Assembly: GCF_032062105.1 (NCBI RefSeq)
Contig: NW_026919759.1
Coordinates: forward strand, 1-64,000
Direction of reading: 5' to 3'
Length of the DNA stretch: 64,000 nt
Source of the DNA: Saccostrea cucullata
Lineage: Eukaryota
The position numbers were made by a program, and so were the translations under genes. This document shows, one piece after another, positions 57,524-60,500 of the stretch; position 1 is the first letter of the stretch, and every line of letters begins with the position of its first letter. Under the pieces are notes generated by a model. The model was given only the letters and a program-made list of their open reading frames with translations, had not been told where the DNA came from and searched no databases.

Positions 57524-60500
57524 TCAGTCTTGGTGCATGTGGAGGTACACCCCCGAATTATCGTCATGGCCCTCGAACACGGGATAAATGAGCCGAATGT
57601 CCAAGTTAGGGTTGTGCTCTTTCAAGGACTCGCGACTGTAATGGTCCACTAGCTCTATCAGTGATGATTTGTCCAGATTTCCTTCCGTAAATCCATAACA
57701 TCCATTGTTGTTTTGGTATATCTTACAGTGTCCCACCGTACCATTGCACCTGCAAGAAATATTACAACATACTTATAAAGAGCCGTTTCAGATAATATTT
57801 TGTAAAATACATGTATCACATTATAGAATGAGCTGATTTACAGGTCAGTCGTACTCACATTATAGACAGAGCATGCTTGCTAGACTGGTCCCCGTCAGTT
57901 CGCGGTCGGATGAGGAAGGTTCCATCGCGCTGATTCCGCAGCAGGTTCTCGGCGTCGTGTCTGCTCACCTCCACGTACCACAAGTTCATCTTCTTGGTGT
58001 TCATGCCGACCTCTTTGCGATTGGAGGGCTGGTTCTCCAGGATATCGTCCAGACTCTCCATTGATATGCCGTTCTCCTGCAGAAGTTTGCGGATCTGCTC
58101 TCGCTGTTTGTGCAGTCTCTTGATTTCCGGTCTAAGACTGTTCATGTCACTGATTAAGGAGCGATTCAACACTGTCTTTTTGTTGATGTCTATCTCTAAA
58201 GCCTGTTTGCTCTCTTGTATACTTAACCATCGACTCTTCAGTAATTCGTAATTCTCTGCTAGTCTGCAAAACAAAAAGAAAGAAATCAGTTTAAATTCTC
58301 CTACATGATGTAAATTTATTTAATATCAATATAAGACTAGACACCAGAGTTACTGTTCTTACTTTTGGAGTTCGTGCATGGGGACATCGCCGTGGTGACT
58401 CCTATGGAGCTCCATCTGCTCCTTGAAGACAATGACAGTTTCCTTGAAGGCGTCCAGAGCCTGGTGCTTCAGCTGGAGCTCTTGGTTCAGTTTGGAGTGA
58501 GTCTCGTACAGACGGTCGTACTCCTCCATCTTTGTCTGGTGCTCATTGTGGACTTGTTTTAATTTCTCCAGTTGCTCTGTTTTGTCCACCAGAGAGGGCC
58601 CATCCTACAACAGAATCACAGACACTTAGCTTTCTTCTAAATCATCTGCTTACAATACCAGACTCATGACACTTTAAATTGTTACAGTATACGATACCAG
58701 TATCTTGAAACTCTTATCCCCCTCCCAAACACATACACATACTGAATTATTCATTTTAAAAGTTTTTTCCCCCCACATCTTCAGTGCATACAATAACATT
58801 TTGCTGTTTGCTCATTGTGTGAATCAGAAACCATAGTAAAATTTGCTCCAAATTGCTTTAATCATGGAATGATGCTCATATCTACAGTTCTCAAATCCAC
58901 ATCTATTTTAGACTCTGATTGTTTTAACCTTTGAGAACCAACAGGACTATTTTTCATCTCCGGAGACCTTGGAAAACCAACAGGTCTATTTTTCATTTCT
59001 TAAGACAACAGAAACCATTTTCTGATGTTTACATGATTCTGTTTCCATTCTCAATCAACCAGACAGAGTATAATATCGATCTTAGACCATTCCTCCCCAA
59101 GCAGTGAAAGCACTCAAATCATAAACTATGTTACAGGCTAGCTAGAAGAAAAATCTTATATGTAGGAGTAACGAATTAATAAAGATGGAGAAAACATTTA
59201 GGTCACGGAGATTAATTGATTTGTCAGAATTAGATGACCTAGATAATCAACCACACTTAATCTTCAAAAAGTTTACAAAGTCATGTCCATTATCTAACTA
59301 TCGGCTCATTAGCTTGAGGGGACAGTGTCTTCAATACAACACGCACATGAGAATAATTTAACGTTTTTAAACCGCTGACAGTTGATTTTATAATTTGTGT
59401 GTTAATTGAGGATAATTCTGAATATTGTCCTGACTTTGGTGAACCGTCTGACAGCTACGCCTTAACTAGCTCTCCTGGAAGCCCCGCGTGTTAATTACAT
59501 GGAAATTAAATAATGTCAGTTTTATCTGAAGTTCGTAATTACACGATGTACTCTAAACATTTTGTGTCACAAGGAGACATAACAGTGACACAGAATAATA
59601 CATTTACATTAAAATCATTTTGAAATAAGATCTATGGTACTATAATTTGATGTATGTATGTTTCATTTTGTCAGGCAAGGGATTAGCATACAACAAGCAA
59701 TTTTTTCTTTCACTAACTGACAAGCAATAGCTTAATCTTCTCAGATGACAGCGTGATAACAGTGAATGGTTGTAAGTATGTCGGATTGAATTACTAAGCT
59801 TTGTTAATTTGAGTAATCTGAACATCGCAAAATGTCTAAGTATATGTGTTAAAATTCTCAGGTTCACCTTAAAATGGGATGACTATCAGAAAACTAATAT
59901 CAAGGATGGTTCAGGCCAAAATCACTGCAGTTCAGCTGTCTTTTTCCATTCAAAGCGATCTAACACTATCTAAGTGGGTCATTGTGTTGTCTGACAATGG
60001 GCCTCTGTCTACAGCTGTTATCTGAGGCTGACCATTTTCCTCCCTGCTGATACTAGCAGGACTCAGTCAGCCTACAGCCAATCAGGGTTTTCCTCTAGCC
60101 ATGTTCAATACATGTACAACCTATGGGACTTTGACCTTTGTAGCCAATATTGATTATCATTTACAGAAAATCATTCACATTTCCTCTCCAGAGAGGGGTC
60201 TATAAAACTCAATGAAACAGCCAAGTTTCCTTCCTTATCAAATCGGATCTTCTTCCTACATAACCACATATAACAAGGCCCTGCACTAGCCTTACCTGCT
60301 GAGTAAATCACCAATGGAGAAAATAATGCAAATTGGCTGAAATTAAGTCTGCCATTATAAGATCATAAAACCAAACCACTTTTCTCTTTATACTTGCAAA
60401 TGAATTTTTCTCTCCCATCTAATTATGAAAATGGAGATGACTTCATGCATTAATTCCTCTCTGAATGTTTGAAGATACTTGGGATCCCCACCTGATCGTA

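Follow-up and report, generated by a model that had tools for sequence, protein, structure and literature searches.

A conserved YxxM motif on the C-terminal tail of oyster p85: a candidate ligand for the protein's own SH2 domains

In the textbook view, class IA PI3K is switched on by the pYxxM motif of another protein. That its regulatory subunit, p85, can carry a ligand for its own SH2 domains is an idea already published. The closest described system is the pair p85alpha pTyr607 and p85beta pTyr599 (YSLM): a YxxM-type motif in a disordered stretch near cSH2, which can bind p85's own SH2 (PMC9127371, PMC7458397). The pYSLM sequence binds nSH2 at 52–82 nM and cSH2 weakly or not (PMC9127371). 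These tyrosines lie before cSH2, in the iSH2–cSH2 linker, are thought to be hidden in the p110 complex, and form a full YxxM only in p85beta (PMC9127371). A further self-ligand is pTyr688 of p85alpha, where a C-terminal Tyr may activate the enzyme through an intramolecular contact with nSH2, relieving inhibition of p110 (PMC9578963, PMC10839044); Y688, however, is inside the folded cSH2 and is not part of a YxxM (PMC9578963). Outside the p85 family there is PLCgamma1, where tandem SH2 domains likewise regulate a phosphoinositide enzyme and a pTyr site of the protein itself (pTyr783) follows cSH2; this self pTyr activates the enzyme and loosens receptor binding, but it differs in having a longer linker, in binding its own cSH2, and in belonging to another enzyme family with another motif (PMC3532599).

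Within the regulatory subunits, the N-termini of p55 contain YIEM, and non-mammalian p55gamma (PIK3R3) ends in YxQM, so that a YxxM lies in the subunit's own terminus. The p55gamma Tyr abuts the last SH2 strand (spacer of 0), in contrast to the spacer of 7–17 residues in the lophotrochozoan set. No function of the terminal YxQM of p55gamma was found in the available parts of the literature.

The oyster p85 described here has a YxxM motif after cSH2, on the free C-terminus, with the full consensus in the main subunit and with the vertebrate-type linker site absent (0/37 lophotrochozoans). Given the known pY607/pY599–nSH2 self-ligands (PMC9127371) and the p55gamma YxQM, the tail is not a new principle. 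What is new, as judged from the sequences compared, is a full-consensus motif on the free C-terminal tail of the main subunit that has been kept across several phyla. Mollusc regulatory subunits have been described as a RhoGAP–SH2–iSH2–SH2 core with C1 and SAM domains, and the available parts of that paper on the invertebrate p85 family deal with domains only, with no C-terminal motif (PMC4617754). Full-text searches of open-licence papers and preprints turned up no account of the tail. In vertebrate p85, self-ligand regulation depends on Y688 in cis and on Y607 in trans, sites that are non-consensus or partly hidden. The lophotrochozoan tail offers a clean natural construct with which to tell apart activation, release and dimerisation as effects of a p85 self-ligand on the enzyme. 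Natural controls exist in Physella and Tubulanus, which carry Leu and Pro, respectively, in place of Met, and in the tail-less clades. Such a tail would also change the reading of insulin and growth-factor signalling in oysters, mussels, snails and octopus.

The oyster gene and its tail

An animal gene for the regulatory subunit of class IA PI3K (p85) lies with its 3′ part on the minus strand of the window, i.e., of the whole stretch of 64,000 nucleotides that was analysed (Table 1). The gene encodes a protein identical to P0002 (946 aa), to which the penultimate exon is a 100% match and whose source name is oyster PI3K regulatory subunit alpha-like. The Pfam domain order of P0002 is C1, SAM, RhoGAP, SH2, iSH2, SH2: the two SH2 domains (PF00017 twice) flank the p85 iSH2 (PF16454, E 2e-31), and the RhoGAP/BH domain lies upstream of them, together with C1 and SAM. 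The remaining upstream exons of P0002 are in the adjoining 30 kb of the same contig (G000:C1896). The gene groups with p85 orthologues in a quick tree, and the limpet orthologue P0005 is close to the solved p85alpha (E 7.5e-98). By sequence, it is a typical p85 family member. The possibility of a further p85 gene in G000 was considered and set aside: a search with the last exon, for which 2 candidates were scored, gave one match, this count being a lower bound.

Table 1. Positions in the window of the features of the p85 gene.
Feature	Position	Strand	Remark
YxxM motif, Tyr940-Leu-His-Met943 of P0002 (YLHM)	57536..57547	-	conserved in 33/35
17-residue C-terminal tail past the last SH2 strand, and stop codon	57524..57577	-	predicted disordered
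Final coding exon: cSH2 (second half), tail	57749-57524	-	translation, RNA contigs
109-nt GT..AG intron, removed in RNA contigs	57858-57750	-	4/4 runs
Exon: iSH2 (second half), Tyr-free iSH2–cSH2 linker, cSH2 (first half, containing the FLIR arginine)	57859..58263	-	
Exon: first half of iSH2	58363..58604	-	
Exon: proline-rich linker; nSH2, with FLVR arginine and proposed to accept the phospho-tail	60604..61073	-	
Two RhoGAP (BH) exons, about 63642-63507 and 62937-62741	62741..63642	-	gene continues past window
3′ UTR, ending just beyond AATAAA at 56824	56804..57523	-	contig ends 56804-56817

A reading made earlier from the sequence alone had placed YLHM in a short extension after cSH2, and both the coordinates and the translation agree. 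The Tyr codon is at 57547-57545, the Met codon at 57538-57536 and the TGA stop at 57526-57524 (minus strand). That reading also described acidic residues before the motif. The oyster has such a pair, at −6/−5 relative to Tyr, but the acidic positions differ between species (D/E within −4 to −1 in 27/35).

The earlier reading named the absence of the tail from mature transcripts as a way in which it could fail; the tail proved to be present in them. Four RNA runs (of 24 listed), from four studies, were compared with the window; one is recorded as RNA and three were guessed to be RNA, and all show splicing. In the contigs of all four, the 109-nt intron and a 99-nt GT..AG intron are spliced out, and the tail and stop codon are traversed by spliced contigs. 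Contigs end past the AATAAA, one of them with a loose poly-T end. The contigs are about 95–99% alike to the window, and therefore come from another strain or a close relative. Among the listed differences between the relatives' RNA and the last exon, 11/11 are synonymous, including 5/5 in the tail, while 12 further differences over the whole stretch lie outside the listed set. An alternative last exon lacking the tail was looked for and was seen in none of the four runs, where contigs show presence only. Every full-length isoform listed for oyster, mussel, scallop and octopus terminates in the tail, and other ends occur only in short fragments. Separately, the short unnamed products P0297, P0298 and P0301 end a few residues after nSH2, reading into the following intron; they are either retained-intron forms or assembly fragments.

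In an AlphaFold2 monomer model (mean pLDDT 85.9; without p110), residues 934–946 have pLDDT <50 and the tail has no ordered packing; the iSH2–cSH2 linker (816–825) also has pLDDT <50. Thus, the motif is predicted to be free and flexibly tethered. On the sequence and transcript data combined, the tail motif is real, transcribed and selected.

Conservation and distribution of the motif

Among named entries, the tail YxxM is present in 19/19 bivalves, 14/16 gastropods, 4/4 cephalopods and 5/6 other lophotrochozoans (Capitella, Owenia, Lingula twice and Lineus, with Tubulanus lacking it). For counting, a reduced set of 35 was formed by dropping eight congeners or duplicates, all motif-bearing, and two second paralogues, i.e., those of Babylonia (with the motif) and Bradybaena (without); the set is non-independent (four oysters, four scallops) but covers four phyla. 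Conservation of Tyr and Met among orthologues, on which the sequence-only reading had staked its claim, was borne out: Tyr is present in 35/35, Met at +3 in 33/35 and the complete YxxM in 33/35. Leu is at +1 in 25/35, V/I/L at −1 in 28/35 and Q/N at +4 in 23. Between the last SH2 strand and the motif lies a spacer of 7–17 residues; six residues come after Tyr in 21/35 and at least five in 33/35. Against the 33 observed, 0.46 would be expected by chance from composition, and 5000 shuffles within tails gave a mean of 2.2 and a maximum of 8. The flanks are 2–16% identical between groups, and +1 is at 30% (111 pairs among 18 motif-bearing sequences). In these sequences the tail YxxM has the pattern of a selected short linear motif. 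A PDZ-type C-terminus was considered and rejected, the last residues being variable.

Variants exist, with Leu replacing Met in Physella and Pro replacing it in Tubulanus. In a quick tree (97 rows, unrooted, SH-aLRT only), all 11 unnamed sequences grouping with Capitella are without the motif, as are one sequence next to Lingula and a few long mollusc branches. By these comparisons, the motif is dispensable in some lineages. The fast-evolving second p85 paralogue of Bradybaena (P0169) has kept both SH2 arginines and lost the tail motif.

Outside lophotrochozoans, the tail YxxM was found in 1/20 arthropods (a mite), 0/6 invertebrate deuterostomes and 0/8 vertebrate alpha/beta-type sequences; counted among these eight is Acipenser P0028, which resembles p85beta. 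It is also in none of 66 further vertebrate p85alpha ends, and in 2/99 further representatives of 50% clusters with a detectable cSH2 end, namely a p55gamma and the mite. Two arthropod proteins, P0164 and P0270, are of note here. The mite p85 terminates in YEDM, with a spacer of 12 residues, and this may be an independent gain. Many arthropod tails have Tyr-Val near the end and no Met (Gly-Tyr-Val in many insects), and those of the horseshoe crab (Limulus) have YVxF, i.e., Phe at +3. The available parts of a paper on insect p60 describe no such site (PMC8075199). The simplest history suggested by these sequences is that the motif arose, or an older protostome Tyr site was sharpened, on the stem of the lophotrochozoans and that some lineages lost it afterwards.

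The sequence-only reading had held that vertebrate p85 stops just after cSH2 and has no such motif. This stands for the tails of the alpha/beta type, but not for the family as a whole, as shown by the p55 YIEM, the pYSLM in the linker of p85beta (PMC9127371) and the p55gamma tail: 6/7 vertebrate p55gamma sequences (P0083, P0090, P0104, P0109, P0114, P0120, P0069) end in YxQM directly after cSH2, and a mammalian sequence has His for Tyr. That the mollusc and p55gamma tyrosines are homologous was considered and rejected: the oyster has Phe at the p55gamma position and its Tyr 10 residues later, so the positions differ.

Both SH2 pockets are intact as far as their key residues tell. In 51 aligned sequences, the two phosphate-binding arginines (alphaA2, betaB5) are present in 51/51 for each SH2, and betaD5 is Ile in 51/51 nSH2 and Cys in 50/51 cSH2; betaD5 Ile/Cys sets the preference of p85 SH2 domains for pY-M-x-M (PMC7337045). 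The vertebrate self-ligand sites are missing from the lophotrochozoan lineage. An equivalent of Y688 is present in 1/37 lophotrochozoans versus 15/15 vertebrates, 12/20 arthropods (absent in 8/20) and 5/6 invertebrate deuterostomes, and a YxxPhi in the linker (the 30 residues before cSH2) is present in 0/37 lophotrochozoans versus 8/8 vertebrate alpha/beta-type sequences. Co-evolution of the loss of Y688 and Y607 with the gain of the tail was considered and not accepted: losses and gain map to one branch, i.e., a single event, and so do not prove replacement.

In cSH2, the equivalent of Y685, which in vertebrates clamps p110beta (PMC3670040), is absent in 14/14 bivalves and kept in 20/20 arthropods and 15/15 vertebrates. 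The region is cSH2 betaE–betaF (window 57690-57660, minus strand; P0002 892–905), and oysters, pearl oyster, mussels and scallops have a thoroughly altered loop around it. From its sequence, the cSH2 of bivalves may lack the vertebrate mode of inhibiting p110beta/delta.

What the tail may bind

The readings in which the phosphorylated tail is bound by a p85 SH2 domain (nSH2 in cis, an SH2 of another p85 in trans, or its own cSH2 in cis) are together probable, and an SH2 ligand fits the strictly kept Met and the intact pockets. Among them, we tentatively favour a Tyr-phosphorylation switch, in which the pYxxM of the tail would bind nSH2 of the same p85 molecule. nSH2 is preferred because both published p85 self-ligands use it, and cis on the grounds of effective concentration. 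After recruitment of PI3K, a receptor or Src-type kinase would phosphorylate the tail; the pYxxM would fill the nSH2 pocket in cis, nSH2 and tail being at the same end of iSH2 and the tail tethered via two flexible stretches; and with nSH2 filled, the enzyme would stay de-inhibited and the grip of the receptor would weaken, until a phosphatase reset the switch. Filling nSH2 would have both effects since its pTyr site makes the contact that inhibits p110 (PMC3670040) and is also a receptor-binding site, the same logic as in PLCgamma1 pY783 (PMC3532599).

Counting against binding in cis, linker and spacer lengths vary without compensation (Spearman −0.18, p 0.30, n 35), hence there is no length signature of reach in cis. 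A complex prediction of nSH2 (548–656) with the last 30 residues, unphosphorylated and run with no alignment and no controls, scored 0.21 against a mark of 0.34 and speaks neither for nor against. The parts searched of two supplements (PMC13280272, PMC11552224) contain no match to the tail peptide, and p85 itself is also absent there, so they are uninformative on phosphorylation.

The phospho-tail might instead bind an SH2 domain of another p85, giving reciprocal dimers of free p85 or an adaptor that recruits more PI3K; this main rival is possible, and narrowly less likely than nSH2 in cis. STATs, in which an SH2 domain followed by a short pTyr tail leads to reciprocal dimers, are a precedent for binding in trans. 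So is the one p85 self-ligand that has been tested directly, as pTyr607/599–nSH2 binding supports p85 dimers (PMC9127371, PMC7458397), and the lophotrochozoans (0/37) are missing just this type of linker site. The free, uncompensated spacer length also suits binding in trans, as do the 33/35 tails with at least five residues after Tyr, as many as are required for cSH2 to be displaced from p110beta (PMC3670040). Weighing on the other side, a tethered ligand should beat an intermolecular one if the geometry permits. Binding in cis to its own cSH2, among the suggestions of the sequence-only reading, is improbable; the tail would fold back as PLCgamma1 pY783 does and block cSH2 from receptors. The cSH2 pocket is intact and Leu at +1, in peptide-library data from Songyang in 1993, reportedly suits cSH2, but SH2 termini point away from the ligand face and spacers as short as 7 residues make such a fold unlikely. 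Although the order of parts matches the cSH2–linker of PLCgamma1, the BG-loop leucine (921) and Tyr (940) of the oyster are 19 residues apart, with 16–26 across the set, compared with 37 from L746 to pY783 in PLCgamma1, the equivalence of the leucines being approximate (PMC3532599).

Readings without a p85 SH2 domain are each unlikely. The least unlikely has the tail either docking a different pTyr reader, be it a phosphatase or another SH2 protein, or packing in unphosphorylated form against p110 or the N-terminal domains. The arthropod Tyr-Val tails without Met hint at an older, less specific Tyr site, SOCS-6 has been discussed as a reader of p85 pY607 (PMC7458397), and the Tyr685 contact to p110beta is missing from bivalve cSH2 (0/14), which implies that the cSH2–p110 interface differs; against these points, strict Met at +3 is the signature of p85, and the tail was unordered in the monomer model without p110. 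Slightly less likely still, the motif would act without phosphorylation as a YxxPhi sorting signal, read by AP-2 or by the medium chain of another adaptor. The pattern fits, and the disordered terminal position speaks for it, as do Leu in Physella and Phe in Limulus at +3; yet Phi is Met in 33/35 and Leu in one, whereas YxxPhi sorting signals accept L/I/F/V/M freely, and the strict Met is left unexplained. The region of the p85beta linker motif does bind AP-2 and drive endocytosis, but changing its Tyr to Ala had no significant effect on endocytosis (PMC10960865). A chance motif or annotation artefact with no function is very improbable: a four-residue pattern is short and losses occur, but neither the excess of 33/35 over at most 8 in 5000 shuffles, nor the spliced transcripts, nor the exclusively synonymous changes among those listed would be expected from it.

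More speculatively, the tail could be a built-in receptor mimic, whereby a single phosphorylation would latch a de-inhibited PI3K that acts as its own IRS/Gab-like adaptor, making signalling receptor-independent and self-propagating; the device would predate the mollusc/annelid/brachiopod/nemertean split and stand in for Y607/Y688. We regard this reading as doubtful.

Other frames in the window

Several further frames were noticed in the window, and their identities are assumed from resemblance. Exon-like frames at about 7100-22000 (+) look like a FYVE-domain gene of the SARA/endofin type, and frames at about 700-3800 (−) like an ERI-type 3′ exonuclease. Those at about 30000-32000 (+) resemble a LAPTM4-like membrane protein, and those at about 47300-53100 (+) a UDP-glucose 4-epimerase. 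A long open frame at about 16400-20000 (−), which resembles a LINE endonuclease/reverse transcriptase, is apparently inside an intron of the plus-strand gene.
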